A DNA stretch of 64,000 nt from Nemertoderma westbladi (Eukaryota; Animalia; Xenacoelomorpha), in assembly GCA_032718475.1 (NCBI GenBank), contig JAUCBJ010007659.1:1-64000 (forward strand). Reading direction: 5' to 3'. Position numbers and translations under genes: made by a program. This document shows positions 3,133 to 25,738 of the stretch, in pieces (the stretch's first letter is position 1; each line of letters opens with the position of its first letter). The notes under the pieces are model-generated. The model ran no database searches, was not told the DNA's origin, and saw nothing but the letters and a program-made list of their open reading frames with translations.

Positions 3133-4484
3133 AGAAACATAATGGAGTGTTTTACTGTGGAAGATCACCCATGATGGTGAACAGGCATTCCTTTAGGAAA
3201 CAGTGGAAGGGGTGTACTGTGGAGGATCACCCATGGTGGTGAACAGGCATTCAATTAGGAAACAGAGTGGAAGGGTTTACTGTGGAAGATCACCCATGAT
3301 GGTGAACAGGCATTCCGTTAGGAAACAGAGTGGAAGGGGTTTACTGTGGAAGATCACCCATGGTGGTGAACAGGCATTCATTTAGGAAACAGAGTGGAAG
3401 GGTTTACTGTGGAAGATCATCCATGGTGGTGAACAGGCATTCATTTAGGAAACAGAGTGGAAGGGTTTACTGTGGAAGATCACCCATGGTGGTGAACAGG
3501 CATTCATTTAGGAAACAGAGTGGAAGGGTTTACTGTGGAAGATCACCCATGATGGTGAACAGGCATTCCGTTAGGAAACAGAGTGGAAGGGTTTACTGTG
3601 GAAGATCACCCATGATGGTGAACAGGCATTCCGTTAGGAAACAGAGTGGAAGGGGTTTACTGTGGAAGATCACCCATGGTGGGGAACAGGCATTCATTTA
3701 GGAAACAGAGTGGAAGGGTTTACTGTGGAAGATCACCAATAATGGTGGTGAACAGGCATTCTTTTAGGAAACAGAGTGGAAGGATTTACTGTGGAAGATC
3801 AACCATGTTGGTGAACAGGCATTTATTTGGGAAACAGAGTGGAAGGGTTTACTGTGGAAGATCACTCATGGGGGGTGAACAGGTATTCCTTTAGGAAACA
3901 GAGTGGAAGGGTTTACTGTGGAAGATCATCCATGGTGGTGAACAGGAATTCCTTTAGGAAACAGAGTGGAAGGGTTTACTGTGGAAGATCACCCATGGTG
4001 GTGAACAGGCATTCATTTAGGAAACAGAGTGGAAGGGTTTACTGTGGAAGATCCTCCATGGTGGTGGACAGACATTCCTTTAGAAACATAGAGGAAGGGT
4101 TTACTGTGGAAAATCACCCATGGTGGTGAACAGGAATTCCTTTAGGAAACAGAGTGGAAGGGTTTACTGTGGAAGATCACCCATGATGGTGAACAGGCAT
4201 TCCGTTAGGAAACAGAGTGGAAGGGTTTACTGTGGAAGATCACCCATGATGGTGAACAGGCATTCCGTTAGGAAACAGAGTGGAAGGGGTTTACTGTGGA
4301 AGATCACCCATGGTGGTGAACAGGCATTCATTTAGGAAACAGAGTGGAAGGGTTTACTGTGGAAGATCACCAATAATGGTGGTGAACAGGCATTATTTTA
4401 GGAAACAGAGTGGAAGGATTTACTGTGGAAGATCAACCATGCTGGTGAACAGGCATTTATTTGGGAAACAGAGTGGAAGGGTTT
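3133..4484 (+). repeat. 63-bp satellite, left part (about 21 units)
   Basis: Unit GGAAACAGAGTGGAAGGGTTTACTGTGGAAGATCACCCATGGTGGTGAACAGGCATTCCTTTA. Confidence 0.95.
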
Positions 4485-4536
4485 TGTTACGGTATATGGC
4501 GCTGTATCCACATTATTAGCCATTATGCAGTATAAT

Positions 4537-4624
4537 ATATTAGTCCGTTATACTGTACGCAATATTAGTCCGTTATACTGTACGCAATATTAGTCCGTTA
4601 TACTGTACGCAATATTAGTCCGTT
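4537..4624 (+). repeat. 25-bp tandem repeat (about 3.5 copies) at the start of the LTR
   Basis: TAGTCCGTTATACTGTACGCAATAT starts at 4541, 4566 and 4591, with a partial copy at 4616. The same array is present in the 3' LTR. Confidence 0.9.
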
Positions 4625-4945
4625 GTGCAGCATAATATTTTAGATAAGGCATAATAGCGCAGTGATATTTAGATAGGGAAATCGAAACGCCCATATATTT
4701 TGAATCCATCCATTTTGTATAGTATGTAGCCCTACCTACGTAATTTTGTAATAGGATATAGGTAGATAGTTCCAGGGTAGCAAGTTTAGTCGGACCCTGG
4801 ATTTTGTGCTTGCTGTTATTAGCTTTGATAGGGCTAGATATAGGGACGCTGTCCTGGCCATTCAGCAGCCAGGGACATGATCCATTACCATATATGGTAA
4901 TAATTTGAGGTTTGGGGAGCAATAGGGCTACAATCCGGCCTCCTT

Positions 4946-5054
4946 ATTGGACTAACTGCTTCCAGGTTGGTCTAATGCTAGCGCGGACTGGAGAGCCAAT
5001 AGGAGAGCGATTGAGTCACCCTATTGCATCACCCCATTCGGATCACCTATAAAT
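4946..5054 (+). promoter_or_regulatory. Putative LTR Pol II promoter (CCAAT boxes and TATA box)
   Basis: ATTGG at 4946, CCAAT at 4996 and TATAAAT at 5048-5054 are spaced as in a typical core promoter. The transcription start is inferred, not observed. Confidence 0.55.
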
Positions 5055-5657
5055 TGGCGGTTTGCCGGTAGAGCTGCACACCCTTACAACCAACCTTAAC
5101 CTCAGTACCAATCTCAATCCTCTGTAGGTGTACAGTTAGAAGTATAATTTTGCGTATTTCTGCAATTTGCTAAATTTTGATTAATTTCTTGAGATGATTT
5201 GCTAGTGCTATTATTCTCGATTGCGTTTCTCAATTAATCCTATCGATTACTGCTAATTACAATCGGAACTATGATTTCTACCCCTTTTGTTAATGGTTCT
5301 ATGTGATTCCTTTCTACGCAATAATCCTAAGGGATTTCTGAGACTGTCAGAATTTGTGATTTTGCATGCGCCGCTACGGTAGCTATTCAATTAAATGAAG
5401 GGCTAAGGTGCCAGTAGGCGGTGGGCGCATCGGGGGGTTGGGCGACTAAGGGAGAGCGGAGGATTCAAAGGCGGGCAACGCTGGCGGGGGTCAACGTTGT
5501 GGTAGGGCAGTTTGGACTGTGAGTTGGAGACCGCTCGCCGGTACAGTAATTAGGGGGCTGATGATCCAAGGTTTTGTCTCTATTTAGTATTAGGGGGGCA
5601 GGAATTGGGTTAGTTAGGAAGCCTAGATGTACCCGGGAGGGGCCTGCATACCTCACA

Positions 5658-5691
5658 GTAAGTAAGTAAGTGGGTAAGTACGTAAGTAAGT
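5658..5691 (+). promoter_or_regulatory. Cluster of six GTAAGT 5' splice-site (U1-binding) motifs in the LTR
   Basis: GTAAGT at 5658, 5662, 5666, 5674, 5682 and 5686. Confidence 0.6.
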
Positions 5692-5916
5692 TGCGAATTA
5701 TATAATTGCAGATTGTATAATTGCAAATCGTGCTATTTGTGATCTGTGATTGCTGACGCTGATTGGTGTGTTACTGAAGTGTGCCTATGATTACGAATGC
5801 TTAGGTAGGCGCCCCTTTTCTTTGATTGATTTCTATTTCTTAGTTACTACAAATAATTACTGATTAGGTCAAAGTAATACGGCAATTTAGGCTATTACTA
5901 GCGAAACCTGTTGTGT

Positions 5917-6099
5917 AATAAATTAGAATTACGCATTCTGGAACTCTTAGTAATTAGTGCGCTGTTACATATTTGTGACTGTAATTGATTAGTAAAATTA
6001 AGAATTAGTACGCAGCATAGCGGAGAGTAGCTAAGGTAATAAATTAGAGTACCGTAAACTATTCACGCTAGGCGGTTATTTGCATTAGCGGGCAATAAA
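5917..6099 (+). terminator. Candidate polyadenylation signals in the LTR
   Basis: AATAAA at 5917, 6038 and 6094, and at the equivalent positions (+16992) in the 3' LTR. Which one is used is unknown. Confidence 0.4.
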
Positions 6100-6736
6100 C
6101 TAGATCGCAATAGTCAGTACGCAAGACACTAGTGAATTGCTGGCCTAAAGCCAGCTGCAGGCAAGTTTAGACCCGGAGTGGTATCACCCACGAAAGACAT
6201 TGTACTGTACCAATTTTGATTATTTTAAATATTCTCGCATTCACACATTCCGTTAGGGAACGCCCAGTATTCGCGGTTAGAAAAGACGTAAGCATTAGTG
6301 TACTTCAATAAGTGGTAAAATTAGGCGTAAGAATACTCTGAGTGCAAAGCCCCTCGCACTCGTCTTAAGTAAGCTTAGGGAGCCGACTCGGGTTTATTGT
6401 TTTGGTTATTCCCGTGTGGCTCATAGATTCGAACAGTTAGCTCTCTATCGAGTGATCGGTAGAGAAAGGAACAAGCGATTTTGCAGGAGTTGTGTAAAAT
6501 TAGTAAAATATATTAGCGGACGGCAGATTAGCGCCATCCAACGGTAAGTAGCGGTTTTGTATTTAGCAGCCTTTACAATTTAGTAATGGCACGCTCCTGA
6601 TCCCCTTTACTTAACAGTAGAGCAGTCTTTGTGTCTTATTGGTTAGGCGAGAGCTCATTAGGTTGGCAGAGAGGTATACGGGTATTTGTCTGTTCAACAG
6701 TTCTGCTGTTAGTATAGGTGTCGCGGTTGTTTATCA

Positions 6737-6748
6737 GTGAGGTATGCA
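6737..6748 (+). promoter_or_regulatory. Primer-binding-site position, non-tRNA type (GTGAGGTATGCA), complementary to LTR 5645-5656
   Basis: Directly abuts the 5' LTR end and lacks the TGG complement of the tRNA CCA end. It is the exact reverse complement of TGCATACCTCAC at 5645-5656 and 22637-22648. Confidence 0.6.
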
Positions 6749-8023
6749 TTGGTTACTGTACTAAGTACTGTACTGCGTACGGTGACGAGTGTATTCTGCA
6801 TTAGATTACTGTATTATTTACTGATACTTCGTATCAGTGAGGTATGTTGCTTGTTTTTTTTATTGGCTGTTGCTTGCAGCAGTCAATAGTGTATTCTTAG
6901 GCTGATTAGTAGTATCACAGTATTAAGTAATAAATTGGAGCACGTGATCGTCTGCTATAGGCTAGCGTACGGTAGAACATTGAGTGTATTCATTTAGGCT
7001 GTTAGTTTAGATTACTGTATTCACTGGTCGCGTACAATAGTACAGTAGTACATTAGGCTGATTGCTGTTACTGCGTACGGTAGAAGGACATTTGTTTGCC
7101 GTACCACATACAGTATTTTTTAGGCTGTTAGGTTGGTGTACTGTTTTACTTACTGTACTGCGTACAGTGGATGTACGGTAGTGCGTTTTTGCTAATTGCG
7201 AATACAGCAGTTCCTTAGGCTTTAGGGCAAATTGTAATTAGTAAGTTTTTTGAAAATTTTAGCTAGGTTTGCGAGAATTCAGTTTCGGTCAAAATTATTT
7301 GTAAAATTCTAGAGTTTTGTACCGGTATGTTAGGTAACCGCTTAGTTATTTTATACCATCTGGAGATACATGGCAAGACGGAACTTCTGAGTTTGGGGTT
7401 CATGTGGGTCTGCGGGTTCGGTTTGCAATCAGCGAAGGGCCTGAATCTTTGGATGCGGACGTGGAATCTCACAGCAAACAAGGTTAGTTGTTCTGTTGGC
7501 ACCATTGTGTTTGTGGAAGCAGTAAAAAATTATCGGTTGTTTAACTGCGAAGCTGAACTCAATTTATTAGTTAGGATATTTAGGTTTAGCCGGCCATGGT
7601 TTTTTGAATCGCTCAAGTTAGAGAGAGAGTTAGAGAGAGTCGCAACCCAAAGATGTAGCCACGCGCTAGTGGATACATATAATATTTGAAATTAAAATTA
7701 CATTGATTAGAGCTATATATAAAATTAGAAATATTCGGGTGGCAAGTTTATTTTGAATATTTTGTATTAGATTCAAAGTTATTTTGTGCTATACCGGTAT
7801 TTAATTGCTATAATAGCTATATAATAATATTTTGTTTAAATATTGTGCTAGTATTTGCTATAACTATACCCCATTAAATTCCCAATATTGCATTGCGAAT
7901 TTATTTGACATTTGGACCAACTGATTATTTGACAAATAATTTGACCGTATTTCGGTTAAATTATAATTATATCTCGAACTTTTGCGAGATATTTTTGCCG
8001 GAAGGCAAAACATTATTTAGACT

Positions 8024-11000
8024 ATGAGTGTCTCAGACAAAGAAGCACTAGAGGACAGCTATGAGACGGCGGCTGGACCGCCGACTGACGATAGCGTAAA
8101 TATTACTGTTGACGACAATGCCGACTATGACGACGCAGCGAGCGACGCTGACGTAAGTGAACAGGAGGACGAGACAGTGACTAGTGAGGAAGAACAACAA
8201 CCTCAAGTAATAGTATTAGGATCCCCTACCGCTACTGTAGGGAAGGATTGTACAGCAACCCAACCAGAGGTGAGTGATAGGGAGGGTAGTGTAGCAGAAG
8301 CGAGAGCCCGGAGCCCGGTTTCCAGACCTGTGGGTATGGTAAGTGCCGTGGTCCCGACGGCTGTAAGGAGTACCCGTAGTTCCCGAAATAATCCTTCAAG
8401 TCCACCGAGTGTGAGTCAGGTAAGCGAGAGAGAACTAGACATCGCGATAAAGAAGAAACTTCGCGCGCATGCCGGACATATAACTCGGACGGCGGACAAG
8501 GTAAGGAAGATGTTAGCTGACTCAGCGAACATCGGGAGGGTAGAGTTAGTAGAGATTAGAAGAGGATATAACTCAGCGTTATTCAAGCAGACGGAGGAGC
8601 TTGCAGTCCTAGCGAAGAAGGCAGTAGAGTCTCAGTCGAGCGACGTGGCGACGAGGATTTACGACAGGGTTTTAGCAGCCTTGTTGGAGCACCACGAGTT
8701 ATCGGAGCGATTCCGACGAGGTAGGACGGAGAACTGGCTGCTATGGGCATCACAAGCGCAGGCGACTCAAGTGAGTGACGCAGCGTTGAGAGACTTAGTG
8801 GAGCGAGAAGAGATCCAAGACAAAGAAGAGCGCCGTTATCAGAGGGAAGTTACTAGCTGGCTGATGCAGAATGGAGTGGTGGTACCGGGTCAGGTGCTAC
8901 CGACGACGGAGAACATTCAACAGAGGACGTTAACTCCACCCGACGATGCATCCAGAGACAGCGGCGATTCCCAGGTTAGTCACGCGCGAGGTAAGGTTAT
9001 ATGTGCTAGATCCCTTGTTTCGCACAACTCGGCGGAGGAGAGAAGACGCCGACTGGACGAACAACAGGCGGAAGTTTTGCGTGCATCGGAAGCACGGAAG
9101 GAAGCCGAGCGGGAACGGGAGCGCACACGTAAGTTGGACGCGGAATTGCGAGAGTTGGAAGAGATAAGTAAGCGCGAGCGAGCGGAACGCGAGCAAAGGG
9201 AACGCGAACTCCAAGCCGAGCGCGTGCGCGAGGAACTCGAACGCGAACAGAGAGAACGCGAACTCCAACTTGAATGCGAACGGGAAGCGAAGAAATGCGA
9301 ACTCCAACTCGAACGCGAACAGGAAGCGAAGAAACGCGAACTCCAAGCCGAACGCGAACGCAAGAAACTCGATCGTGAACAGAAGGAGCGCAAGCTTCAA
9401 CTCGAACGCGGACGCAAGGAACGCGAACTCGAGATCGAAAAAAGAAGACGCGCATTGTATGAAGAAAAGGAGCGTGTGGAAGAAGAGAGCGCAGCGAGAC
9501 GAGCGAGGGAAGAAGAAGAACGTAAACTGGCGCAGTTGGAAAGTGCGAGATTAAGTTTAGAGAGCGAAGAACGGACTAGGAAGGCGAACGAAATCGCCGA
9601 GAAGGGGATGCGAATGATCGAAGAATGTGGGGCGAGTATAGGGACAGAGTTGCGAGAACTGTTCGCACTGCAGAAGGCCGAACAGGAAGCGAGAACTCCG
9701 ACTATACGCGAGTCGACAACAACCAGAATTCCTATACCCGGTCCAGCTATTACGAGTACACGGATCGCTAAACCGTTCTCTACATATCGCACGCCAGTTG
9801 GTATTAGTGCTTCACCCATCGCCCAGGATCCACGTCATCGGAACACCGCTCCTAAACTCGATCGTGAACAGAAGGAGCGCGAGCTTCAACTCGAACGCGC
9901 ACCACTATACACCGCACCACTATACACCGAACGAGAGAACGAAGAATTTAGAGGAGAAATTCCAACGGGACGAGTATTGGGCGAACCGAACCCGCGGGTT
10001 TGGAATACGCGGACGGAGCGCCAACCCAGTTCGACGGAGAACTTCCGGGTTAAACCGGAAGAGGGATCATATGAGAGACATCGGATTACTCAGATAGAGC
10101 CGACTATACAACAGAACCCTAGCCAGGAATTTATTACGAGGGATGAGTTAAGTGCTAGTTTAGCGCAAGCTATATCGCCACACATCCAACCTATAACGGA
10201 CATGCTTAGCAACCTACGGTTAAAGGAAGCAGCCCAGGTAAGAAGTAATTCAAATCCTAGCAGGCCTGAGTCAGATAAAGTCCAGCCTAGTCAACGAGTA
10301 CGCATATCGGAGGAGACTATACCACGTAGACCTCAGGTAAGGACGCCTGTCCCGAATATTCATAATCCCAATTTCGAAAACTCAGCCGAGAAATTTATTG
10401 AGGAAGCTTGGGTCAGGGCCTCGGCACGCAAACCATTGCGAGCACTAAGGACTGACACCGAGTCAAGCGATGAAGAGGAAGACATGAGACGTCAGAAGTC
10501 CCGAAACTATAAGGAAAGAAGGACGGACGCGGAGCAGGTAAGTTTGAACCACCGGGAAAGGAACAGACTTAACAACCCTGCGGAACTAAACCATTTGTTA
10601 ACCCGGAACAACGCAACCCTTAGGGACATAGGTAAGTTTGCTGCTAGGCAAGGACTGCCGACGCAACAACCCCAGAAGTTTATGGGCAACCATAAACACT
10701 GGAGGACCTTCAAAACCTATGTCGACGAGCAGCTAACCAACAGCACCTTTACTCCCAACGAGAAGTTCAACTATTTGCTTCAGATGCTCCATCGAGAACC
10801 TAGAGCCATTGCTGATAACTTCGTCGGCAACGAAAGAGCATTCGAGTTAGCGATGAAGACGCTTAGCAACATCTACGGGAATAAAACGAAGATGGCGCAG
10901 TCGATAGTAGAAGACTTGGGTAAGGGCGGAAGGATTACAACTCCGTTAGAGCTGTTGAACTTAGCGAACGCTATTTCGAACGCATTGGACATCTTGAGGA

Positions 11001-14000
11001 CGGTGAATCTACCTCATCATGGTGATCACGCCGAAGTTTTAAAGAGTGTAATAAGACGTTTAAACATGCGTTATCGACAGAAATGGCGCAAATTAGAGAA
11101 TAAGTTGGAGGGTCAAGGTAAAGTATTGACACTTCAACACATTCATGACATGATAGCCACAGACGCAGTAGCAGAGATGAAATCAAACTTCTCAGAAGAG
11201 AATATGAGAGAGTCTAAACCTGTTACCGGTAAGTCTATGGTAAGTTTTGACGATGACAGGACCACTGTGACATTTAACTCAGTAGACAGATATAATTCGA
11301 ATACCCCAGCCTTTAGATCAGACTCGCGAGTATGGTCAGGTGAGCGGTTAGATAGACCTAGGTTAAAGCAACAGGAGTTGCCGGATGGATTTGTAGGTTG
11401 CCAATACTGTTTACTAAAGGAGGTAAGATCTGATGACCATAAGTTAGATAGTTGCAGACGGTTCAAAGAATTAAATTCGGAACAGAGAAGAGTTCAAGTG
11501 CGGACGTTGGACACCTGTTGGGCATGTCTTGCGCCAGGCCATGTACGGCGGCAGTGCCCGAACAGCAAGGACGGATGCATGGAATGCGGCAGACTACATC
11601 ACAAGTTGCTACATGCGGATTTCCATACCCCAACGGACCGTTACTTACAGCGAAATCCTCAAAGGAAGGGGAGCAAAGAACCCATATCGATAAGGAGGAA
11701 TACGTATACCGGCATTCAGGACGATGGTTACCAACCAGGTTCGTCGGACGAGGATGGCGAGTCGAGCGCGAGAGAAGTGACCTGCCAAGGTTTCACTGCG
11801 GATAGTTTATCGACCAGCGCGCGGACGTATTTATCATCGGCCACGTCGGAAATATTTAGCGTGATTCCGGTGAAACTCACTGGCGATAAGGGATCGAAGC
11901 GAATATATGTGATGTTGGACACTGCGTCCACATTATCTTATATCGACGAGGAAGTGGCGAGAGCTGTTTCTAGCTTCCAGGACGCCGAGGAGATCCAAAT
12001 AGAGTTGAAGTCTATGCATGGGGTAGGAGACCTCAAGGGACACAGAATTTCGGTAGAACGAGACTCCCTACTTCCGAGAGACCAACATACTCGACAAGAA
12101 CGAAAAGCTTTGCCATTGGACGGATTTAAGTGTCTAGCTATGAAGGGATTCGGCAGGCAGTTAGGTAAGGTGCCACCGATGAGTCCCATAGCACAGGAGT
12201 ATTTTGACAAGCTCAGGATACCCAGACACCAGGTAGGTTATAGGAATGTTTCTATGTTGATTGGTGCAGAACAGCTGATCGCACACCAGATATGGGAAAC
12301 GAGACCAGCTGAGCCGCATGTCAATGGACCACATGCCCATAGGACCATACTAGGTTGGTATACACGAGTACCCATGTCTTATGAGTTTACAGGTGGCGAC
12401 AAGCCGATGGACAGATACGACGAATTACAGCCTATAACTCAACCACCGTTAGTAAAACCACCAGACATAGACGAGTTTAGGAGAACCTGTATTGACCACT
12501 ATAGTGACTTTAGCGAGTCAGACGAGGAGTTGATTCCCGATAATGTTAGGTTGTCGGAACCACTTCATAACGACCGGACAGATAGTGAACCCGAGGACTA
12601 CTGTCATCAGACCCGTGGGTCTGGTTCAGCGGCCCACGCTACCTATTTGACTAACGTTTCGACTTATACAGACATAGTGGAGGGTCAAGTGGCTAAATAT
12701 CGAGACCTAGACATTTTCCAATACAGTGAGGAGGAATTACAGAAGGAATTGATACGCCAGGACCTCGAGACAGGAGCCAGAACCGTCGAATGGCTGGATA
12801 GGGACGCAATGGAACCCGGTGGATATGACCTAGCCATGTCCACTGACGAGAAACGGTCGCTGGAGATGATGGAAGATACCATACGTCTGCTACCGACAGG
12901 ACATTTTGAAGTTGGAATGTTGTGGCGTCGACAACCACCTAAGTTGGAGAACAACTACAACTTAGCCTTGAAAAGATTAAACGGAGTAAGGGCTCGGTTG
13001 TTGAATAATCCGGACATTAGGGAGAAGTATTGCGCCCAGATCAACAACTATTTTGCCAAGGGATTTGCTGGGAAGGTAGAGGACCCTGACTTAGTGACAG
13101 ACCAGACTTATTACCTTCCACACCACTATGTGACTCACCCTGACAAGCCAGACAAAGTCCGAGTAGTCAACGACTGCGCAGCAGTCTATAGAGGTATGTC
13201 CCTGAATTCAGAGTTGATGGATGGTCCCAACCTGAACAACTATTTGATTGGAATATTGTTGCGTTTTAGACAGCAGCGATTCGCATTTACTTGTGACATC
13301 GAGGCGATGTTCCACCAGGTAAGAGCCTGTAAGGCAGACCATGATAGCCTTCGCTTTCTCTGGTATGAGAATGAAGACTTATCCGGCCCAGTGGTTACAT
13401 ACCAGATGTACGTTAGGATATTTGGCGCCCGCGATAGTCCAAATGGCACGCTGTTTGTTCTAAAGAAAACGGCAACAGCCCAGATTGGTAAGTACCCAGT
13501 AGAGGTTATCGAGTCCATCTTGAGAAACTTCTACATGGACGACGGATTGGTGTCCAAGGACACGGCGGAACAAGCCATAGAAGGGGCTCACGGCCTGCAA
13601 GAGTGCTTGGCTACAGGGGGTTTTCCTCTGACCAAGTTCACTACAAACTCGGAGGCCCTATTAGAGTCGTTCCCAGTGAAAGATCGCGGGAGCGGAGACA
13701 TAGAATTGGGGGTAGAACCAATCCCCATGGCGCGAGTACTGGGACTCGCTTGGAACCCGAACTCAGACAAGTTCCAGGTAAGAGTTAGATTTGAGCCCAG
13801 TAGCCCAGACAAAGTTTTGACAAAGAGGATTTGCTTATCGACATTAAGTAGACTATTTGACCCGATGAACTTTATCAGTCCGGTTATATTACAGGCACGA
13901 GCGTGCATGAGGAAAATTTGGTTGTCCGACATAGAGTGGGACGAACCAATATCTCCTATACATGCAAAGCAGTGGAGGGAGTGGGAAGCCGAGTTACATC

Positions 14001-16507
14001 TATTGAAAAACATAGATGTACCCCGTTCCTACTTTCCGAATCAGCTGGTATTTCCAGCTGATCTCGAACTCCACCTATTTAGTGACGCAAGTGACACCGG
14101 CTTTGGTATGGTAGCCTACCTTCGCCGAGAGGTAAGTCAGGACAAATTTGAGACGGCCTTTGTGACTTCTAGATCAAAGACAATGCCAGTCAAATACATG
14201 ACTGTCCCTCGTGCAGAGTTACAGGCGGCTGTAGTTTCAGTCGAGGTAAGTAAGCAAATAACTGAGGAGTTAGACACGACATTGACCTTATTCTATTGGA
14301 CGGACGCATCCTTGGTGTTAGTATACATTGCGGCCGACAATATTGCACTAAAGACATTTGTGGCCAACAGACGCGCTCAGATCGTTGATTTTTCGACGAA
14401 GGAACAATGGAGACATTGTCCGGGAGTGTTAAACCCGGCCAACATAACTTCGAGAGGTGCAATGCCGGCGGAATTCTGTCAGGAAGAGTCGCAGGAGTTT
14501 TGGTTGCATGGACCTGATTTTCTAACGAGGACACAGGAACATTGGCCAGAGCGACTAAAGATTGTGACCAATCCGATGCCTGAAGATGCAGAAGTCAAAG
14601 TGGAGAAAGTCTCTAAGTCAAAGTCTAAAGCCAAACTTAAGTCATTGGAGCGGCCTGAAGAGTCATTGGAGCGGCCTGAAGAGTCATTGGAGCGGCCCGG
14701 AGACCTGTCAGACCAACAGACTTACGTGACTACTAGGTCCGGAAGGGTAAGTTATGATGTAAAACCACCCTTACAGACTAAACCGGAGTCACAATTGGTA
14801 AGTGACGGACAGAAAATGACTGACACAATGGATCCTTTGGTTTCCAAACCTGCGGGTTTGGATTAGAAACTTCCATTAATTAGCGGACAACCGTCGCTGG
14901 CATTAGAATCATGCAGTGTTTATGACAAATTACTAAATTCGTCTGCCTCTTGGCTGACAATTTGTAAAAGAACTGCGTGGTTAAACCGATACATTTCGTA
15001 CCTTTGTTTAAAACATTCGGAACATTTAGGAGAACCATCGAGCGCTAATAGTGAGCGAATTCAGAAATTGAAACAACCTCTGACAGAGGATGAGATTGAT
15101 CAAGCGGAATTAAAGCATTTGAAGCATTATCAAATGTGTGCCTTCCCTAAAGAATTCCATCTATTATCAGCTCAACGACCAGTTCTCTATAAACCCCTTA
15201 GAAAATGGAGTCCATTAATCCATAAGGGTTTGATTTGTCATAGATCGAGAATCCAGACTGTCGACATAAACTCACAGTTTCGGTTCCCAGTGATAATCCC
15301 TAGTCACCCAATAGAATTGCAAAGAGCGATTCTATGGGATATACACAAGAGGTTGGATCACGCGGGAAAGTTACACTGTTTGTCGGCAGCGAGACAGCGA
15401 TTCATTCTATTGCAGCCAAGCAGGGCAGTAGGCACTATGTACGACGCCTGTCTGGTTTGCAAGAGAGTGAACGCCAGAGTATTGGAACAGGAGATGGCTG
15501 AACTCCCGGAAGCGAGAGTGCAGGCATATGACCCACCCTTTACGAACACAGGGGTGGACTGTTTTGGTCTGATTGAGGCAAAGAGTGGACGGCTGACCCA
15601 CAAGCGATGGGGTCTGCTGCTGACATGTATGGCTAGTAGAGCCATACATATCGAGCGTGTGGCAGACATGTCGACCAAATCTCTGCTCCTGGCCTTGAAG
15701 AGATTTATGGCCAGGAGAGGACTAGTATAGGCGTTCTATTCCGATAAGGGTACAAACTTTGTCGGAGGGAATAGCGAGTTGAACGCCGCTCATAAAGCGG
15801 CACAGAATAAGGAAATTTCTGCAGCACTTTTGCCGCAACGAGTAGAGTGGAGATTTAATACTCCAGAAAGTCCTTGGAGAGGAGGAAGTTGGGAGCGTTT
15901 AGTTCGCTCTGTAAAGCAGGCCATTGCCAAAACATTGCCTGTGAACAAACAACTTACCGACGACGAACTGGTCACAGCTTTCATCGAAATCGAGCATACA
16001 TTAAACTCGAGGCCGATAGCTATGTTGCCAGACGGTGTTGCATTAACGCCGAATCATTTGCTAATGCAGAGTCCAGCATTTCTTGTGCCGGCATCAGAAC
16101 CCATTAGTGCCGACCTATATAGTCGTAAAAGCTGGAAGGTGACTCAATTAGTGGCGTACACATTCTGGGAATATTGGCGGGAATACTATCTTCCCACCAT
16201 ATCTACCAGAACAAAGTGGTACAAAACGGTTCGGAGTCTCCAAAGGGGAGATTACGTATTGATAACCGAGCCGATTGTCAAGAGAAAGTATTGGGAGACT
16301 GGAGTGATCTTGCACACACACCCAGACGTGCAAAACATAGTGCGCACAGTCACTGTGAAAATTAGGTGCAAGTGTCCACACCCAAAAAAGTGTAAAACTA
16401 ATGGTTTGCACACCTTGGACCGACCGGTCCAAGATATTGTGTTATTAGAGGAGACACGTATCGAGACGGGAGATTATAATTTGTCTCCTGCCTCAAAACA
16501 GAATTAG
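8024..16507 (+). CDS. BEL/Pao Gag-Pol polyprotein (coiled coil, Gag, 3 Cys/His motifs, protease, RT, RNase H, integrase) interrupted by two in-frame TAG codons
   Basis: ORFs 8024-14866, 15068-15730 and 15779-16507 share one frame. The sequence across the TAGs at 14864 and 15728 stays pol-like (SSASWLTICKRTAWLNRY; RRGLV*AFYSDKGTNFVGG). Motifs: Gag KFMGNHKHWRTF...EKFNYL; CQYC..H..C, CWAC..H..C, CMECGRLHHKLLH; protease LDTAS; RT FYMDD; RNase H FSDAS/RAEL/WTDAS; integrase H..H..CLVC, VDCFG, SDKGTNF, WERL. Confidence 0.93.
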
Positions 16508-17197
16508 TGTTGGACGCAACTCACTTCGTATGCATTCCTCGTATGCAGATACAAGGAAATGCATAGGAGCGGGTTGTGGTGATTTGCGTTGAGTTTTGTC
16601 TGGTGGGCATCAAAACAAAATTTTATTTTCAAAAATTTTTGGAAAATTAAAAAATTTTAAAATTAGAAGTAAACCCAAGACAATTCCAAACGCTGTGTAT
16701 AGACGCGTTTTAGAATTCGTCTATAGATAAACAGTAATTTGAAAGTCGTGAAGCCTGGAAAATAGCATTTAGAAACCATGGTGACGGCTATATTACGTAG
16801 GAGTGTAAATTGAGTTTAGCAACTTCCACAGATTGGTGCCAACAGTGCAACTAAGGTGCTAAAGGTTAGTAGCACCAGAGGCGTACATGGACCCCACTCA
16901 GTAGTTTGCAGTGATGTGTGATGTTCGATTATCAAACCTGTGGGTTTGGTATAGTCGAGTATTGTGGCTATAGTCCTTTCTAACTACTGTAGTTTAGTAC
17001 GAGTAATGGGAGTAGTTTGGGCATCAAAAAGTGAGTTGGTCACGGCCAGTTTATCTCCAAAGTTTTTGCGCTATGCATGGGAATAGGTTAGAGGTTAGTT
17101 AGTTAGGAAGAGACGGGATCTAGAGAGTCGAACCTGAACTGCTGGAAAGCGGGGGGGGGGGGGGGGGGGGTTCGGGAGGTCTGTCTTTCGGCAACAT

Positions 17198-17216
17198 CTA
17201 ACTGATTTACCCACAG
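17198..17216 (+). promoter_or_regulatory. Putative branch point and 3' splice acceptor for a subgenomic ORF2 mRNA
   Basis: CTAAC at 17198-17202 followed by TGATTTACCCACAG (AG at 17215-17216), 60 nt upstream of the ORF2 ATG. Confidence 0.45.
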
Positions 17217-17275
17217 TGTAATTGGTTACGTAACGGCACTTATTGGGATATATATATGTATATACGCGAGGCATA

Positions 17276-20200
17276 ATGGAGAAGGATATTAGAGCGCAAC
17301 CGCGCAGAGGATTTACTGCCAGAGAGGAGGCGGAGCTACCATTCGCGCGACCAGGATGTAAAGACTCTAACGTTTACTACCATGGGCGGTCCGTGATGGA
17401 GCTAAACGGAAAATACAAACCGACTTACGATAAGGAATTACGGAGGGAAAGAATGAGAGCGTTGGGGGACTGGATGGAAGTTTTGCGGAGAGAGTATCGC
17501 ACTCGGTATCCCTACGACTTCGCTTTGGACGTATGTGACATTAGTGCAGACCCGGATGAGGAGATCGCACGACTGTACCATATGAATATGTATTTACGAC
17601 ACGAAGAACCTCTACCTGCAGTCCGAGATCAGTTCGACGGAATGCATCTGTACCGGAGGACTCGAGGCGAGGATCAGGAGACGCCGAAAGTCTTCAGCGT
17701 GTACAAGCTGTTCTACAAGTGTGGTGAATGCATGAATAAGCAAGACGTGGCGATTCCCGACCGACTAGACGAGCAACATCCAGAACCGATATTAACGCGA
17801 TGTCCAGCTCACCAGTTCCTTAGATACAACGAGGGAGGTTACCCGATGAGCAACCCGATGATCAGTATCGACTTCAGCGGAAAGCGACCTCCGAGACCCA
17901 TTACGCCGACCGTTACGACATTAGATCCGTATACGGAGATTAAACCCTGTTCGACACCCAGTTTGATAGAGACGGCAGCGGCCATTTCGCTGTACCGAGC
18001 CTATAAGGATCTAGAGGCGCGGCGCGAAGCGGCACGGGACTCGGGTACCAAACCCGCGGGTTTGGAGCTCTCGAGTCCCTGGACTGCGTTTACTTCACCT
18101 CACCGAGCGAGAAGCCTCACGCCTGAGCATCAGGACGACATAGACGCGTTGCGGCAGGAGGAGCGAGCGGCGAAGGCGAAAGAGTTATTTGAGAATAGGA
18201 TAGCGGAGTATAATAAGGCCGCGGATAGACATCAAGAGGAGACGAGGAGAGTGACCGGATTTGTTCCACAGGTCGTATCTCAACCCCGACCGGTGTATTA
18301 TTCCGACGGCACCGAACCTGCGATATTAGTAGATCATCCGGAGTCGCGAGAAGCGATACGATTCTTGCCGATGGTAAGAATGGCGGATCATTGGAACGTT
18401 GACTGTCTACGGGAAGTTTTATGCGCGAAGTTCTTGCGTGATGTCCCAATGCAGATCACAGATTACGACACATTGGATAAGATTGGAGCTCCGGGGAAGG
18501 AGAGCAAATTATTTGGATGGTTGGATAAGTACATCAAGGTATGGGTCGCGGTGGCTACATTCCCAGACGACGAGGAGGTAGACCAGACGTGGCTGAGGAG
18601 GAAGGGTTCTTATACCCGATATGATGACCACAAGGCTATCGAGCGCATGTGGACCCCATCAGACGAGATTCAGCGTCAGTGGAGGAAAACGGAGGAATCA
18701 CTGCAGGATTGGAGGGTGATGTTCTACGACAATGAAGGAGGGTCCCATCAGGAATGTTTGACCAGCAAGTGTATTCAAATTCGTGCAGCCGATGGTGTGA
18801 CTCATGTGTTTATGCGTGTGAGGGCGGATCGAGAGAGACCGGAGCCCATCATAACGACACAATATCGGAAAGGGAAGGATCCTAGGGAGCAGATTTTGGA
18901 GGTATGCAGGCGAGGAGGTATGCACGGAGCGGAGCGTATCGACGCCAGGATGCTACCCAAGAAAGTTAGAGAGGCTATTCTCAACCAAGATTACGTCAAG
19001 GTGGGATCGGGAGTCCAGAGCGATTTGGAGAGCGACTTCAACGCCATGACTGATCTGGAAGATAGATTGCCGAGACCGTTTGTCGACACCAAGCTATTGT
19101 TGCTATGGGCACAGGATATTGGAATTTATAGGGAGTATCCCAACTCTGCCAAGACTGGTATGGGCTTTATAGCACACTTGTTGTATAATTGGGACTTTAA
19201 GTTAAAGACGCAGAAGAAGTACGAGGAGGCGTATGGCGAATACAACACGCCACCGGGAGCGGAGTTCAAATCCCACTTCAAGCGGCAAGCGTTAGTGTAT
19301 TGGAACATTTGCGCGCCACCCCGTGCGTCGCTACAATATTATTTGGTGCTTGAGTCGAACACGGTGACTTGTTTATTAGCGGATATCGTTGCGCGAGTTT
19401 TGAAGCGTCATCCATTGGTATTCGGAGGAGATCAATACGTTCGCTCGAAAGGGGGAATCCAATCCGACGTGATGAAGCGTTTCTTAACCCCGTTCTTCAA
19501 CCAATCGTTAGAGAATACGTCGATGGTTAGGAGAGGATTAGCGATATTCCAAGGAGTATATCGACAGAACATCGGAGATTTGGGAGACCGACCGTCGATG
19601 GAGTATCCGACGCCAGAGGCTTTGGAGAAGTGGTTCGGGAATCAAACCCGCGGGTTTGGTACTCCCTTCCACTCGGAGGCTGATAGACCTGTTAAGGAGG
19701 GCTGGCCGGAGACGTTAGTAGAGGTGTTCGGAGTAGATCTTCCGGTGGAGAAGACATATCCGAAACGAACGCGGGAGGAAATATTGGAGATAGAGGACAA
19801 GGGCGAGGATGTTTACTTTGTTCCGGATCGACAACCGCTGACCGGAGAGGACGACATCGTATTAGACATTGGGAAAGAAGGAAGTGCGAAACCGATTGGA
19901 GACCTCATATACGAGAGGGCCTGGTTTCCACAAGCGCGTAGGTGCAAGTTGTGCGGCAGCACAAGGCACAATCTAAAGTCGTGCGACGCGGTAGTAGAGG
20001 CGGCGCATAAGGTCTGTCGTTGGTGTAATGAGACCGACCATTCGTTTCACACGTGCACCGTCTTCATTTCTCAATGTGGATATTGTGGGGTAAAGGGACA
20101 TCGTAGCGCGAGATGTCAGCTGCGAGATGATTCCTTCCAAAACCATAGCGCTAACCTACTTCGGGAGATGTTAGATAAGTGGGAGAGTGTGGCTGACTAC

Positions 20201-20878
20201 CATATTCAAGCGCAGATGCGTTGGTTACCATTCAAGGCGGGGTATGGATTTTGGGCGGTAGACCCATCACATGTTGCGTACGAGCCATATCTACAGTCGC
20301 TACCACAATATCAGGAACTCATCCTAACTGCTCAAGACCTTCCACAAAACACTGGAGTTATCGTAGTCCGAGAATACTTCAGACAGTTGAATATGGATAA
20401 TAAGTACACCTGGAACTTCGTTGCTATTTGCGATCGAATCACGAAGGGTGTATTTTCGGAGACTAGAAAAGTGGTACGCGCGCGAGGTGATTGGAGAATG
20501 GCGGCTATACAATACCGCAACGAATTCTTGTTGACTCATGTGCCAGTGGGTTCATTGACCGCTGAGAGGATACAGGAGCAGAGGATCGCAGCGACCACAG
20601 CGACGACCGCTGGAGCTCAAGGCTCGCGGAAAGAACCAGGAGGAGGGGTCCAAGACAAGCGTCAAGTCAAGGACGACCACTATCACTCTATTATAGAAGC
20701 ACAGCGGTTGCAGCGCAAGGCGCAGGGAGCGTCAGAGAAGGCGCGTGTGCAACTGCATAAGGAAGAGTTGGCGGAAGCGACCACGGGAGCACGACAATTG
20801 GGACGAGGCCCGAGGGAGAAGCACGAGCCGGGAATCTGTCGGGGCTCAGGGAGCATCGTCTCCGGTTCCGGGGAGTGA
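17276..20878 (+). CDS. Retrotransposon ORF2 (about 1200 aa): DEDDy/WRN-like 3'-5' exonuclease domain plus three CCHC zinc knuckles
   Basis: Uninterrupted ORF between pol and the 3' LTR, first in-frame ATG at 17276. ExoI-like VMFYDNEG, then CIQI; ExoII-like LPKKVREAILNQDYVKVGSGVQSD; FVDT; KTGMGFIAHLLY; ExoIII-like YWN...P...LQYYLVLE. Knuckles: CKLCGSTRHNLKSC, CRWCNETDHSFHTC, CGYCGVKGHRSARC. Confidence 0.85.
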   Translation: MEKDIRAQPRRGFTAREEAELPFARPGCKDSNVYYHGRSVMELNGKYKPTYDKELRRERMRALGDWMEVLRREYRTRYPYDFALDVCDISADPDEEIARLYHMNMYLRHEEPLPAVRDQFDGMHLYRRTRGEDQETPKVFSVYKLFYKCGECMNKQDVAIPDRLDEQHPEPILTRCPAHQFLRYNEGGYPMSNPMISIDFSGKRPPRPITPTVTTLDPYTEIKPCSTPSLIETAAAISLYRAYKDLEARREAARDSGTKPAGLELSSPWTAFTSPHRARSLTPEHQDDIDALRQEERAAKAKELFENRIAEYNKAADRHQEETRRVTGFVPQVVSQPRPVYYSDGTEPAILVDHPESREAIRFLPMVRMADHWNVDCLREVLCAKFLRDVPMQITDYDTLDKIGAPGKESKLFGWLDKYIKVWVAVATFPDDEEVDQTWLRRKGSYTRYDDHKAIERMWTPSDEIQRQWRKTEESLQDWRVMFYDNEGGSHQECLTSKCIQIRAADGVTHVFMRVRADRERPEPIITTQYRKGKDPREQILEVCRRGGMHGAERIDARMLPKKVREAILNQDYVKVGSGVQSDLESDFNAMTDLEDRLPRPFVDTKLLLLWAQDIGIYREYPNSAKTGMGFIAHLLYNWDFKLKTQKKYEEAYGEYNTPPGAEFKSHFKRQALVYWNICAPPRASLQYYLVLESNTVTCLLADIVARVLKRHPLVFGGDQYVRSKGGIQSDVMKRFLTPFFNQSLENTSMVRRGLAIFQGVYRQNIGDLGDRPSMEYPTPEALEKWFGNQTRGFGTPFHSEADRPVKEGWPETLVEVFGVDLPVEKTYPKRTREEILEIEDKGEDVYFVPDRQPLTGEDDIVLDIGKEGSAKPIGDLIYERAWFPQARRCKLCGSTRHNLKSCDAVVEAAHKVCRWCNETDHSFHTCTVFISQCGYCGVKGHRSARCQLRDDSFQNHSANLLREMLDKWESVADYHIQAQMRWLPFKAGYGFWAVDPSHVAYEPYLQSLPQYQELILTAQDLPQNTGVIVVREYFRQLNMDNKYTWNFVAICDRITKGVFSETRKVVRARGDWRMAAIQYRNEFLLTHVPVGSLTAERIQEQRIAATTATTAGAQGSRKEPGGGVQDKRQVKDDHYHSIIEAQRLQRKAQGASEKARVQLHKEELAEATTGARQLGRGPREKHEPGICRGSGSIVSGSGE

Positions 20879-21476
20879 CGCCTTACGGACGCCGTCAACA
20901 GAGTCTACAGGAGGTAGACTGGTGTATCTGGGCAGGGGGCGAAAGAGAGGAGCGAGCCCGAAGAACCCAGGAGCGGGTCGATAATGCATCGTAGCACAGG
21001 GCGACAGACTCTAGATATATACATCATCGTCGCTCTGATGTATATTGTAGCATTTAGAAATATTCGACTAGACTCATATACACTAGTTGCGCTGTTTTGA
21101 ATTTATATTATGAGAAAGGCGAAGGAAGTGATTGGGGAGACAAACCTGCGGGTTTGGCTTACTCCTTTCACTTGCCCTAGCAAAATTTTTTATATTTGAT
21201 CTTGTATGTAGTAATCATTATGTAGTACGAACGAGAAACAATATTTTGTAAATTTAATTTGTATGTAATTATCGTTAAACAGTAAGAGAGATAATATTTG
21301 TAAATTTAATTTGTATGCAATTCATTATGCAATATCTATAGCAATATTTTGTAAATAGTAGGATTTATAGTATCAAGTATTTAGATTATTTGGAAGAAAT
21401 TTATTTTGTTTTGTATACATCACCTTATACTCTTCTACAGTTGGAGGGAAACATTATATGATTTCCCTTGGAGCGG

Positions 21477-23728
21477 TGTTACGGTATATGGCGCTGTATC
21501 CACATTATTAGCCATTATGCAGTATAATATATTAGTCCGTTATACTGTACGCAATATTAGTCCGTTATACTGTACGCAATATTAGTCCGTTATACTGTAC
21601 GCAATATTAGTCCGTTGTGCAGCATAATATTTTAGATAAGGCATAATAGCGCAGTGATATTTAGATAGGGAAATCGAAACGCCCATATATTTTGAATCCA
21701 TCCATTTTGTATAGTATGTAGCCCTACCTACGTAATTTTGTATTAGGATATAGGTAGATAGTTCCAGGGTAGCAAGTTTAGTCGGACCCTGGATTTTGTG
21801 CTTGCTGTTATTAGCTTTGATAGGGCTAGATATAGGGACGCTGTCCTGGCCATTCAGCAGCCAGGGACATGATCCATTACCATATATGGTAATAATTTGA
21901 GGTTTGGGGAGCAATAGGGCTACAATCCGGCCTCCTTATTGGACTAACTGCTTCCAGGTTGGTCTAATGCTAGCGCGGACTGGAGAGCCAATAGGAGAGC
22001 GATTGAGTCACCCTATTGCATCACCCCATTCGGATCACCTATAAATTGGCGGTTTGCCGGTAGAGCTGCACACCCTTACAACCAACCTTAACCTCAGTAC
22101 CAATCTCAATCCTCTGTAGGTGTACAGTTAGAAGTATAATTTTGCGTATTTCTGCAATTTACTAAATTTTGATTAATTTCTTGAGATGATTTGCTAGTGC
22201 TATTATTCTCGATTGTGTTTCTCAATTAATCCTATCGATTACTGCTAATTACAATCGGAACTATGATTTCTACCCCTTTTGTTAATGGTTCTATGTGATT
22301 CCTTTCTACGCAATAATCCTAAGGGATTTCTGAGACTGTCAGACTTTGTGATTTTGCATGCGCCGCTACGGTAGCTATTCAATTAAATGAAGGGCTAAGG
22401 TGCCAGTAGGCGGTGGGCGCATCGGGGGGTTGGGCGACTAAGGGAGAGCGGAGGATTCAAAGGCGGGCAACGCTGGCGGGGGTCAACGTTGTGGTCGGGC
22501 AGTTTGGACTGTGAGTTGGAGACCGCTCGCCGGTACAGTAATTAGGGGGCTGATGATCCAAGGTTTTGTCTCTATTTAGTATTAGGGGGGCAGGAATTGG
22601 GTTAGTTAGGAAGCCTAGATGTACCCGGGAGGGGCCTGCATACCTCACAGTAAGTAAGTAAGTGGGTAAGTACGTAAGTAAGTTGCGAATTATATAATTG
22701 CAGATTGTATAATTGCAAATCGTGCTATTTGTGATCTGTGATTGCTGACGCTGATTGGTGTGTTACTGAAGTGTGCCTATGATTACGAATGCTTAGGTAG
22801 GCGCCCCTTTTCTTTGATTGATTTCTATTTCTTAGTTACTACAAATAATTACTGATTAGGTCAAAGTAATACGGCAATTTAGGCTATTACTAGCGAAACC
22901 TGTTGTGTAATAAATTAGAATTACGCATTCTGGAACTCTTAGTAATTAGTGCGCTGTTACATATTTGTGACTGTAATTGATTAGTAAAATTAAGAATTAG
23001 TACGCAGCATAGCGGAGAGTAGCTAAGGTAATAAATTAGAGTACCGTAAACTATTCACGCTAGGCGGTTATTTGCATTAGCGGGCAATAAACTAGATCGC
23101 AATAGTCAGTACGCAAGACATTAGTGAATTGCTGGCCTAAAGCCAGCTGCAGGCAAGTTTAGACCCGGAGTGGTATCACCCACGAAAGACATTGTACTGT
23201 ACCAATTTTGATTATTTTAAATATTCTCGCATTCACACATTCCGTTAGGGAACGCCCAGTATTCGCGGTTAGAAAAGACGTAAGCATTAGTGTACTTCAA
23301 TAAGTGGTAAAATTAGGCGTAAGAATACTCTGAGTGCAAAGCCCCTCGCACTCGTCTTAAGTAAGCTTAGGGAGCCGACTCGGGTTTATTGTTTTGGTTA
23401 TTCCCGCGTGGCTCATAGATTCGAACAGTTAGCTCTCTATCGAGCGATCGGTAGAGAAAGGAACAAGCGATTTTGCAGGAGTTGTGTAAAATTAGTAAAA
23501 TATATTAGCGGACGGCAGATTAGCGCCATCCAACGGTAAGTAGCGGTTTTGTATTTAGCAGCCTTTACAATTTAGTAATGGCACGCTCCTGATCCCCTTT
23601 ACTTAACAGTAGAGCAGTCTTTGTGTCTTATTGGTTAGGCGAGAGCTCATTAGGTTGGCAGAGAGGTATACGGGTATTTGTCTGTTCAACAGTTCTGCTG
23701 TTAGTATAGGTGTCGCGGTTGTTTATCA
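21477..23728 (+). repeat. 3' LTR (2252 bp)
   Basis: Direct copy of 4485-6736, followed by the TSD GGTTT. Confidence 0.97.
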
Positions 23729-25738
23729 GGTTTACTGTGGAAGATCACTCATGGGGGGTGAACAGGTATTCCTTTAGGAAACAGAGTGGAAGGGTTTACT
23801 GTGGAAGATCATCCATGGTGGTGAACAGGAATTCCTTTAGGAAACAGAGTGGAAGGGTTTACTGTGGAAGATCACCCATGGTGGTGAACAGGCATTCATT
23901 TAGGAAACAGAGTGGAAGGGTTTACTGTGGAAGATCATCCATGGTGGTGGACAGACATTCCTTTAGAAACATAGAGGAAGGGTTTACTGTGGAAAATCAC
24001 CCATGGTGGTGAACAGGAATTCCTTTAGGAAACCGAGTGGAAGGGTTTACTGAGGAAGATCACCAATGGTGGTGAACAGGCATTACTTTGGGAAATAGAG
24101 TGGAAGGGTTTACTGTGGAAGATCACCCATGGTGGTGAACAGGCATTACTTTGGGAAACAGAGTGGAAGGGTTTACTGTGGAAGATCACCAATAATGGTG
24201 GTGAACAGGCATTCCTTTAGGAAACAGAGTGGAAGGGTTTACTGTGGAAGATCACCAATGGTGGTGAACAGGCATTACTTTGGGAAACAGAGTGGAAGGG
24301 TTTACTGTGGAAGATCACCAATGGTGGTGAACAGGCATTACTTTGGGAAACAGAGTGGAAGGGTTTACTGTGGAAGATCACCCCTGGTGGTGGACAGGCA
24401 TTACTTTTGGAAACAGAGTTGAAGGGTTTACTGTGGAAGATCACCCCTGGTGGTGGACAGGCATTACTTTTGGAAACAGAGTTGAAGGGTTTACTGTGGA
24501 AGATCATCCATGGTGGTGGACAGACATTCCTTTAGAAACATAGAGGAAGGGTTTACTGTGGAAAATCACCCATGGTGGTGAACAGGAATTCCTTTAGGAA
24601 ACCGAGTGGAATGGTTTACTGAGGAAGATCACCAATGGTGGTGAACAGGCATTACTTTGGGAAATAGAGTGGAAGGGTTTACTGTGGAAGATCACCCATG
24701 GTGGTGAACAGGTATTCCTTTAGGAAACAGAGTGGAAGGGTTTACTGTGGAAGATCATCCATGGTGGTGAACAGGAATTCCTTTAGGAAACAGAGTGGAA
24801 GGGTTTACTGTGGAAGATCACCCATGGTGGTGAACAGGCATTCATTTAGGAAACAGAGTGGAAGGGTTTACTGTGGAAGATCATCCATGGTGGTGGACAG
24901 ACATTCCTTTAGAAACATAGAGGAAGGGTTTACTGTGGAAAATCACCCATGGTGGTGAACAGGAATTCCTTTAGGAAACCGAGTGGAAGGGTTTACTGAG
25001 GAAGATCACCAATGGTGGTGAACAGGCATTACTTTGGGAAATAGAGTGGAAGGGTTTACTGTGGAAGATCACCCATGGTGGTGAACAGGCATTACTTTGG
25101 GAAACAGAGTGGAAGGGTTTACTGTGGAAGATCACCAATAATGGTGGTGAACAGGCATTACTTTGGGAAATAGAGTGGAAGGGTTTACTGTGGAAGATCA
25201 CCCATGGTGGTGAACAGGCATTACTTTGGGAAACAGAGTGGAAGGGTTTACTGTGGAAGATCACCAATAATGGTGGTGAACAGGCATTCCTTTAGGAAAC
25301 AGAGTGGAAGGGTTTACTGTGGAAGATCACCCCTGGTGGTGGACAGGCATTACTTTTGGAAACAGAGTTGAAGGGTTTACTGTGGAAGATCACCAATAAT
25401 GGTGGTGAACAGGCATTCCTTTAGGAAACAGAGTGGAAGGGTTTACTGTGGAAGATCACCAATGGTGGTGAACAGGCATTACTTTGGGAAACAGAGTGGA
25501 AGGGTTTACTGTGGAAGATCACCAATGGTGGTGAACAGGCATTACTTTGGGAAACAGAGTGGAAGGGTTTACTGTGGAAGACCACCCCTGGTGGTGGACA
25601 GGCATTACTTTTGGAAACAGAGTTGAAGGGTTTACTGTGGAAGATCACCAATGGTGGTGAACAGGCATTACTTTGGGAAACAGAGTTGAAGGGTTTACTG
25701 TGGAAGATCACCAATGGTGGTGAACAGGCATTCCTTTG
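23729..25738 (+). repeat. 63-bp satellite, right part (about 32 units)
   Basis: The same unit continues after the 3' LTR. Confidence 0.95.

Follow-up and report, generated by a model that had tools for sequence, protein, structure and literature searches.

Retrotransposons with long terminal repeats (LTRs) need a primer for reverse transcription, and the element described here raises the question of how it starts this step when no transfer RNA (tRNA) site stands beside its 5' LTR, and whether an extra gene that it carries takes part. The element is a BEL/Pao LTR retrotransposon of 19.2 kb that spans positions 4485-23728 of a 64,000-nucleotide (nt) stretch of Nemertoderma westbladi DNA (contig JAUCBJ010007659.1, positions 1-64,000, forward strand; assembly GCA_032718475.1), referred to below as the window. 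Belpaovirids are described as having an 18-nt primer-binding site (PBS) for tRNA-Arg or tRNA-Gly, LTRs of 0.2-1.2 kb and genomes of 4.2-10 kb, and BEL/Pao replication has been termed "poorly understood" (PMC8742986). The original prediction for this locus combined a non-tRNA PBS, splice donors in the LTR and a second open reading frame (ORF2) into one integrated system, in which an ORF2-encoded 3'-5' exonuclease would assist self-priming. Our analysis makes it probable that the element primes itself by a Tf1-like endonucleolytic cut after position 5656 and that ORF2 is a separate accessory gene; the integrated exonuclease-assisted system is not supported, nor is it needed to explain the data. 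The splice-junction primer found in 29 relatives is a stronger and more general result than the finding in the window itself.

The PBS at 6737-6748 pairs over 12/12 nt, at offset 0, with 5645-5656 in the 5' LTR and with the 3' LTR copy of that segment, 22637-22648, which confirms that part of the original prediction. Under a Markov-1 model a 12-nt LTR complement is expected at the PBS 5e-5 times per LTR, and 3 of 14,733 internal positions carry 12 nt or more of complement to the LTR. The 18-nt site for tRNA-Arg or tRNA-Gly, a trait listed by the International Committee on Taxonomy of Viruses (ICTV), is absent, and TGG is missing at the LTR end; the first TGG comes 14 nt into the leader, a position on which we rejected it as a tRNA site. 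Neither tRNA genes nor Rfam families were detected in the element by ARAGORN and Rfam searches. A 15-nt duplicate at 6832-6846, 100 nt into the leader, is a possible second landing site.

Relatives were collected with an RT-RNase H alignment (RT, reverse transcriptase) as query, which held 30 of the 120 homologues listed. The sample consists of the best 80 of at least 546 confirmed BEL/Pao loci, located on metagenome contigs and 37-42% identical in RT; 34 of them have a visible LTR/leader boundary, 19 have too little upstream DNA, and the other 27, without an assigned boundary, could include tRNA-primed elements. A self-complementary PBS is present in 33 of the 34 loci with a visible boundary and a TGG site in the remaining one; the tRNA-type site, missing in 33/34, therefore does not define the whole BEL/Pao group. 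The proposal that self-priming replaces the tRNA is thus supported, and more broadly than had been claimed. In 29 of these relatives (the junction type) the PBS pairs over 10-15 nt only across the spliced junction of an LTR intron of 71-371 nt with a GTAAG donor. Their donor sits within the primer, 4-10 nt ahead of its 3' end, so that exon ligation is required, and the 3' LTR copy, which keeps the intron, pairs with just 6-10 nt of the PBS.

At 15 loci the 5' LTR end was fixed independently, both copies diverging beyond it, and none of the 15 has TGG at that end. The null test of junction pairing covered 12 loci (L027 and L064, which are family duplicates, and L075 were left out). A complement of 10-15 nt over a GT..AG junction was found in 11/12, and, with every GT admitted as a donor, the best junctions used GTAAG in 11/11 cases; mock sites taken from these leaders gave 10 nt in 5/360 and 11 nt in 2/360. 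The twelfth locus, L056, has no match via its 3' copy and 10 nt via its 5' copy. Another 15 loci came from a generic scan and follow-ups; their placement relied on the match and on a CA end found 0-5 nt upstream of it, which makes them less independent. The 29 junction-type loci and the contiguous L075 form 21 RT clusters at 80% identity. The PBS starts of 21 loci fall into 17 different sequences, and the first paired base is throughout 0-5 nt away from the LTR end. Of 342 ordered pairs tested for cross-family primer-PBS pairing, 20 pair, all within five loci of identical start. The 5' LTR copy of L044 (1-214) lacks exactly the 117-nt GT..AG intron that is present in its 3' copy (6935-7265), a physical trace of splicing.

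Contiguous self-complements of 11-12 nt, in intronless LTRs and with no donor after them, were found in L055, L059, L072 and L075. The first three of these, and the TGG-bearing L035, come from a crude scan of the 31 remaining loci. In L075 the 5' copy (1-326) contains an acceptor, while the 3' copy (6700-7103) shows the joined form, which suggests, as read from these two copies, that intron loss may be a route to the contiguous type. L035 is the sole relative with a TGG-initiated site (69-90), which stands 2 nt beyond the LTR end and which may resemble the end of initiator-Met tRNA. From the pattern across the sample, self-priming appears to be a clade-wide trait of these BEL/Pao relatives, and the data support it as such.

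In the window LTR a single A (5657) separates the primer complement from the first of six GTAAG donors (5658, 5662, 5666, 5674, 5682 and 5686), as had been predicted; a donor cluster would begin 0-3 nt from a random LTR position with a chance of about 1%. No GTRAG donor was found within 15 nt after the primer end in 17 relatives. The relatives' donor lies inside the primer or no donor follows it, and their primer 3' end must therefore be made by non-spliceosomal means. The primer 3' end AC is shared by the window element and 14/17 relatives, and the order of donor, intron, acceptor (5843 in the window, where the poly(A) signal follows 74 nt further on) and poly(A) signal is the same in the window and in the relatives; for these two reasons the window donor is most simply an ancestral LTR intron. 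Its pairing register would have moved about 7 nt further upstream, wholly into exon 1, and splicing would therefore be dispensable for priming in the window element. No junction-spanning PBS complement longer than the contiguous one exists in the window LTR: the best over 6817 GT..AG pairs is 9 nt, which is not significant. A second well-formed candidate GT..AG intron, 74 nt long (6544-6617), lies in the unique 5' region (U5), 119 nt before the LTR end, and its junction is unpaired with the PBS. Contigs of run X1 (presumed RNA, and uninformative on expression), which touched 29/30 bins at low depth and were mostly 90-99% alike, contained no splice joints. The donor array (5657-5691) draws very deep X1 contigs with unrelated flanks, pointing to the same simple repeat elsewhere in that sample.

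The reading that we favour would proceed as follows. The 5' LTR part of the RNA would fold back onto the PBS, and an endonuclease, such as the element's own RNase H as in Tf1, would cut at the duplex edge and leave a 3'-OH at C5656. Strong-stop DNA would then run from 6736 back to 5657 and jump to the repeated (R) region at the 3' end. Levin in 1996 is said to have found the RNase H domain to be required for Tf1 self-priming. The 5658 donor might be spliced to the acceptor at 17216 to give a PBS-less messenger RNA (mRNA) for ORF2, as for other ORFs in the env position.

Several observations weigh against this reading. The predicted duplex probability varies with the assumed RNA start: it is 0.92 for a start at 5645; for 5560 it is 0.86 with splicing and 0.15 without; and for 5080, close to the sole TATAAA upstream, it is 0.0. 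The transcription start is itself assumed, and the cut and the splices of the window element are predicted. A Tf1-like flanking helix is no better than chance in the window (p 0.56) and reaches p <0.05 in 0/11 relatives; a helix joining the donor array to the U5 end is present in the minimum-energy fold, but does not exceed shuffles (p 0.56). The primer ends exactly 1 nt before a donor, a spacing that a register shift does not demand, and in one relative, L066, the primer is followed after 1 nt by GTAGGT, a weaker donor-like motif. The comparison of priming with ORF2 rests on ORF2-less relatives, as no ORF2-bearing relative is among the 80. In a quick RT tree the branch of the window RT is long (1.94) and its position relative to the relatives is without support, so descent from the junction-primer state is something that we infer. 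Finally, RNase H of the window copy keeps three of four carboxylates; the fourth position (14441) is non-acidic here and acidic in 30/30 aligned relatives, and a helper nuclease would become more attractive if this change were family-wide.

ORF2 had been called a 3'-5' exonuclease with zinc knuckles. The three CCHC knuckles stand, and the exonuclease call holds at motif level, for which "DEDDy-like" seems a fair label; the call is thus weaker than had been implied. Pfam gave no family for ORF2 at E<=0.1 and none for the exonuclease-like domain alone at E<=10, and two AlphaFold predictions, with predicted local distance difference test (pLDDT) scores of 32 and 29, gave no usable fold. An HMMER scan of 1.84 billion proteins found one homologue, P0002 (E 2.8e-5); a word search with ORF2 found none, and neither did searches for further homologues starting from P0002. 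This 648-amino-acid protein, encoded on a 9.4-kb contig, has the same layout of exonuclease motifs, three knuckles and an aromatic motif as ORF2. The DxE, D, YxxxE pattern is kept (the first motif was matched by eye, as MAFFT misplaces it), and the fourth catalytic position is Glu rather than Asp in both proteins. P0002 matches PF01612 weakly (E 0.2). Atlas leads, which are leads only, point to PF01612 for ORF2 (0.91) and P0002 (0.86), and the top lead of P0002 is a Euglenozoa cluster with PF01612 and zf-CCHC (0.86). Sequence searches of the Protein Data Bank (PDB) returned knuckle matches and spurious ones only, among them TbRND at E 0.13 over the knuckle part only. A run of about 20 G residues (17151-17170) lies just upstream of the predicted ORF2 acceptor.

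No match to ORF2 was found in the 80 relatives (tblastn best E 0.11; profile best E 0.57). The distance from the integrase end to the 3' LTR start is 17-384 nt in 16 relatives (the 17-nt case on an estimated LTR start), and from the integrase end to the LTR end 482-618 nt in 4 relatives, versus 4970 nt in the window element, so that none of the 20 measurable relatives has room for ORF2. The original prediction had given ORF2 a direct role in replication priming and had named self-complementary relatives lacking ORF2 as one outcome that would contradict it; 33 relatives are self-complementary, and ORF2 occurs in 0/80. Since these distant relatives self-pair without it, ORF2 is likely an add-on, a separate accessory gene outside the priming machinery. 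Most likely it would bind RNA through its knuckles and trim or block RNA 3' ends, in the turnover of small RNAs or transcripts.

Other ways of making or using the primer were weighed against these data. In one version of the integrated system, splicing in this lineage only would halt at 5658 once step 1 is done, the 5' exon so released would pair in trans with an unspliced RNA at its PBS, and ORF2 would trim the unpaired A. The primer does stop a single nt short of the six-fold donor array (a chance of about 1% by position), ORF2 has DEDD-like motifs together with knuckles, the window RNase H is without its fourth carboxylate, the window RT lies on a long, unplaced branch, and the precedent cited for such a cut exists: RNA 3' ends of fungal telomerase RNAs are made by the spliceosome (PMC4299874). 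We nevertheless regard this version as quite improbable, as it runs contrary to the pattern of the relatives, where the donor lies within the primer at 29 loci and both splicing steps are needed, a GTRAG donor follows the primer in 0/17, and four contiguous-type loci have neither a donor there nor ORF2. Ancestry also leads one to expect closeness to the donor, there is a strong acceptor downstream at 5843, and the canonical donors together with that acceptor give, by their motifs, no sign of the TER1-like block to splicing step 2; a nuclear, non-polyadenylated exon would presumably need export and co-packaging as well. We hold it to be highly doubtful, for its part, that an ancestral splice-built primer was rewired such that the first cut of the spliceosome frees the primer, a captured exonuclease trims the last unpaired base, and priming needs both the spliceosome and ORF2. 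The other version, in which the genomic RNA would fold back from its 3' end so that 22637-22648 meets the PBS, with ORF2 trimming that end, starts from a correct observation, namely that the complement in the 3' LTR copy lies upstream of three AATAAA signals (22909, 23030 and 23086). From the positions of these signals, trimming would cost the poly(A) tail and at least 260 nt, the entire R acceptor for strand transfer, and the 3' copy of junction-type relatives holds the intron and cannot pair beyond 6-10 nt; we consider this version very improbable indeed.

Two further readings keep part of the proposed picture. Self-priming could be endonucleolytic with ORF2 recruited as a helper in this lineage, trimming a ragged 3' overhang to the 12-bp duplex or chaperoning the pairing. 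At 890-1080 nt, the loop between primer and PBS in the window element exceeds the 87-203 nt of 11 relatives, so that annealing might call for assistance; the knuckles resemble nucleocapsid-type RNA binders, and RNA 3' ends are trimmed by TbRND, in which knuckles come after a DEDD domain (PMC7797062), the PDB match being weak and confined to the knuckles (E 0.13). Against such a helper, Gag already has knuckles, direct evidence for a link is lacking, and DEDDy ORFs have been gained repeatedly by unrelated retroelements (PMC5408684), which argues for a general job; this reading seems to us rather unlikely. Alternatively, the pairing could be a regulatory or packaging structure while the primer is supplied by the host, as a small RNA or a fragment of a tRNA. 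The ICTV calls belpaovirids tRNA-primed (PMC8742986), the relative L035 has a TGG site, and our tRNA search covered the element only. Host RNAs could hardly serve 17 different PBS starts, each matched by its own LTR, and in every case the pairing starts within 0-5 nt of the LTR end, the place at which a primer has to stop, so we judge a host primer improbable. The Tf1-like cut after 5656 thus remains the explanation that we prefer.

The features of the element and the junction-type loci are listed in Table 1. The two LTRs differ by 8 mismatches between the 2252-bp copies (0.36%), and the target-site duplication (TSD) is 5 bp. Membership in BEL/Pao follows from the TG...CA LTRs, the short TSD, the protease-RT-RNase H-integrase order, and the Pao-specific domains; Pfam matches in gag-pol are PF05380 (E 3e-39), PF03564, PF17921 and PF18701. 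RT-RNase H is about 40% identical to BEL/Pao proteins (323 BEL/Pao-type homologues, the named ones from marine invertebrates). Pol is broken in the window copy by in-frame stops at 14864 and 15728; set against the 0.36% LTR divergence and the open ORF2, these stops and the non-acidic RNase H position may reflect a recently moved defective copy, assembly errors or stronger selection on ORF2. A 63-bp satellite surrounds the element, tandem arrays with units of 24, 31, 36, 18 and 350 bp dominate the 64-kb window (3151-4484, 23729-25737 and 33671-37125 for satellite and arrays together), and two further RT fragments are present (48789-49922, minus strand; 63270-63719, plus strand). Four scans of viral contigs for relatives of RT or ORF2 found none.

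Table 1. Features of the BEL/Pao element in window coordinates, and relatives of the junction type
Feature	Position	Strand	Remarks
Left TSD, GGTTT	4480..4484	+	inside 63-bp tandem array
5' LTR, 2252 bp	4485..6736	+	TG...CA ends
PBS complement, 12 nt, exact; putative self-primer	5645..5656	+	ends in AC
Six GTAAG donor motifs	5658..5691	+	5658, 5662, 5666, 5674, 5682, 5686
Candidate LTR intron, 186 nt, predicted	5658..5843	+	pyrimidine-rich acceptor ending 5843
AATAAA signals, 5' LTR	5917..6099	+	at 5917, 6038, 6094
Non-tRNA PBS, 12 nt	6737..6748	+	flush with 5' LTR end
15-nt duplicate of LTR end and first 10 nt of PBS	6832..6846	+	exact copy of 6732-6746
BEL/Pao gag-pol frame	8021..16507	+	DUF1759, knuckles, protease, RT (YMDD), Peptidase_A17/RNase H, integrase, DUF5641
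Branch-point-like CTAAC and acceptor CAG, predicted	17198..17216	+	60 nt before ORF2 ATG; by eye; under pyrimidine filter
ORF2, 1214 codons open	17234..20878	+	ATG 17276
DEDDy-like exonuclease motifs	18722..19354	+	D499-x-E501, D597, Y703-x3-E707
CCHC zinc knuckles, three	19943..20116	+	
Purine-rich tract, short, likely polypurine tract	21470..21476	+	just before 3' LTR
3' LTR, 2252 bp	21477..23728	+	carries primer-complement copy 22637-22648
AATAAA signals, 3' LTR	22909, 23030, 23086	+	
Right TSD, GGTTT	23729..23733	+	
Junction-type loci			L005, L006, L009, L010, L012, L018, L021, L023-L029
Junction-type loci, continued			L031, L034, L037, L043, L044, L046, L047, L049, L051, L056-L058, L062, L064, L066

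The closest parallel in priming is found in Tf1, Tf2 and Tj1 of the Tf1/sushi group (Ty3/gypsy chromoviruses), which, like the window element, have no tRNA site and a short PBS at the LTR end that pairs with their own 5' LTR RNA. This established precedent, which works with no exonuclease gene, is not named in the original prediction. Unlike Tf1, the window element is a BEL/Pao element and has neither the chromovirus RT nor the integrase of Tf1/sushi; its primer lies mid-way in a 2.25-kb LTR with an assumed RNA start, the one flanking helix tested for a "pretzel" structure is not above chance, and a donor abuts its primer, while its relatives build theirs by splicing. Tf1/sushi elements are described as self-priming, and a prediction to that effect exists for Tcn1 and for the copia TAR/Houba/Osr-1 lineage, with no such extra gene described in the accessible parts of these reports (PMC4600332, PMC10085805, PMC6317226), and Skipper elements have another non-tRNA primer site (PMC5006619). 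The element resembles Belpaoviridae (Semotivirus) in its Gag-PR-RT-RH-IN (protease, RT, RNase H, integrase) order, Peptidase_A17, DUF1759, DUF5641 and 5-bp TSD, and departs from the family description (PMC8742986) in its 19.2-kb length, its 2.25-kb LTRs, the lack of a tRNA-Arg/Gly PBS and an enzyme-like ORF in the env position. A BEL/Pao survey (PMC3118150) mentions PBS, primer, tRNA, intron and exonuclease nowhere in its main text, and BEL/Pao LTRs are not modelled in PMC3601003, as far as its available sections go. No report of BEL/Pao self-priming, a splice-made primer or a BEL/Pao exonuclease ORF was found in the literature searched, subscription papers being mostly outside its reach.

For ORF2 the likeness is to the putative DEDDy exonuclease ORF3s that Rodriguez et al. 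report in the bdelloid rotifer elements Juno, Vesta and Athena, gained there more than once, and extra ORFs of LTR elements are typically expressed from spliced messages (PMC5408684). ORF3 of Juno/Vesta and of Athena/Terminon is, like ORF2, exonuclease-like, located downstream of pol and typically read from a spliced message (same source). Unlike ORF2, the rotifer ORF3s belong to another LTR superfamily and, compared by description, have a D-E-E-D instead of a D-E-D-E pattern; ORF2 has 1.2 thousand amino acids and three CCHC knuckles. TbRND, a kinetoplastid RNase D, has a DEDD domain and then CCHC knuckles in the same order as ORF2 (PMC7797062). Unlike ORF2 it is a cellular mitochondrial enzyme, the sequence likeness is weak and limited to the knuckles, and the shared architecture may be convergent.

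The findings describe a large BEL/Pao branch in which a self-pairing primer site co-varies with the LTR over about 21 families, against the description of the group as tRNA-primed. In most of these families the primer exists only after splicing of the LTR intron; this would single out the 5' LTR copy as its source and would make reverse transcription depend on splicing by the host. As an outlier the window element is informative: its primer appears to have shifted wholly into exon 1, its LTR is longer by a factor of 4-5, and it has acquired an exonuclease-like gene. With it, DEDD-type accessory ORFs are extended from rotifer gypsy-like elements to BEL/Pao.

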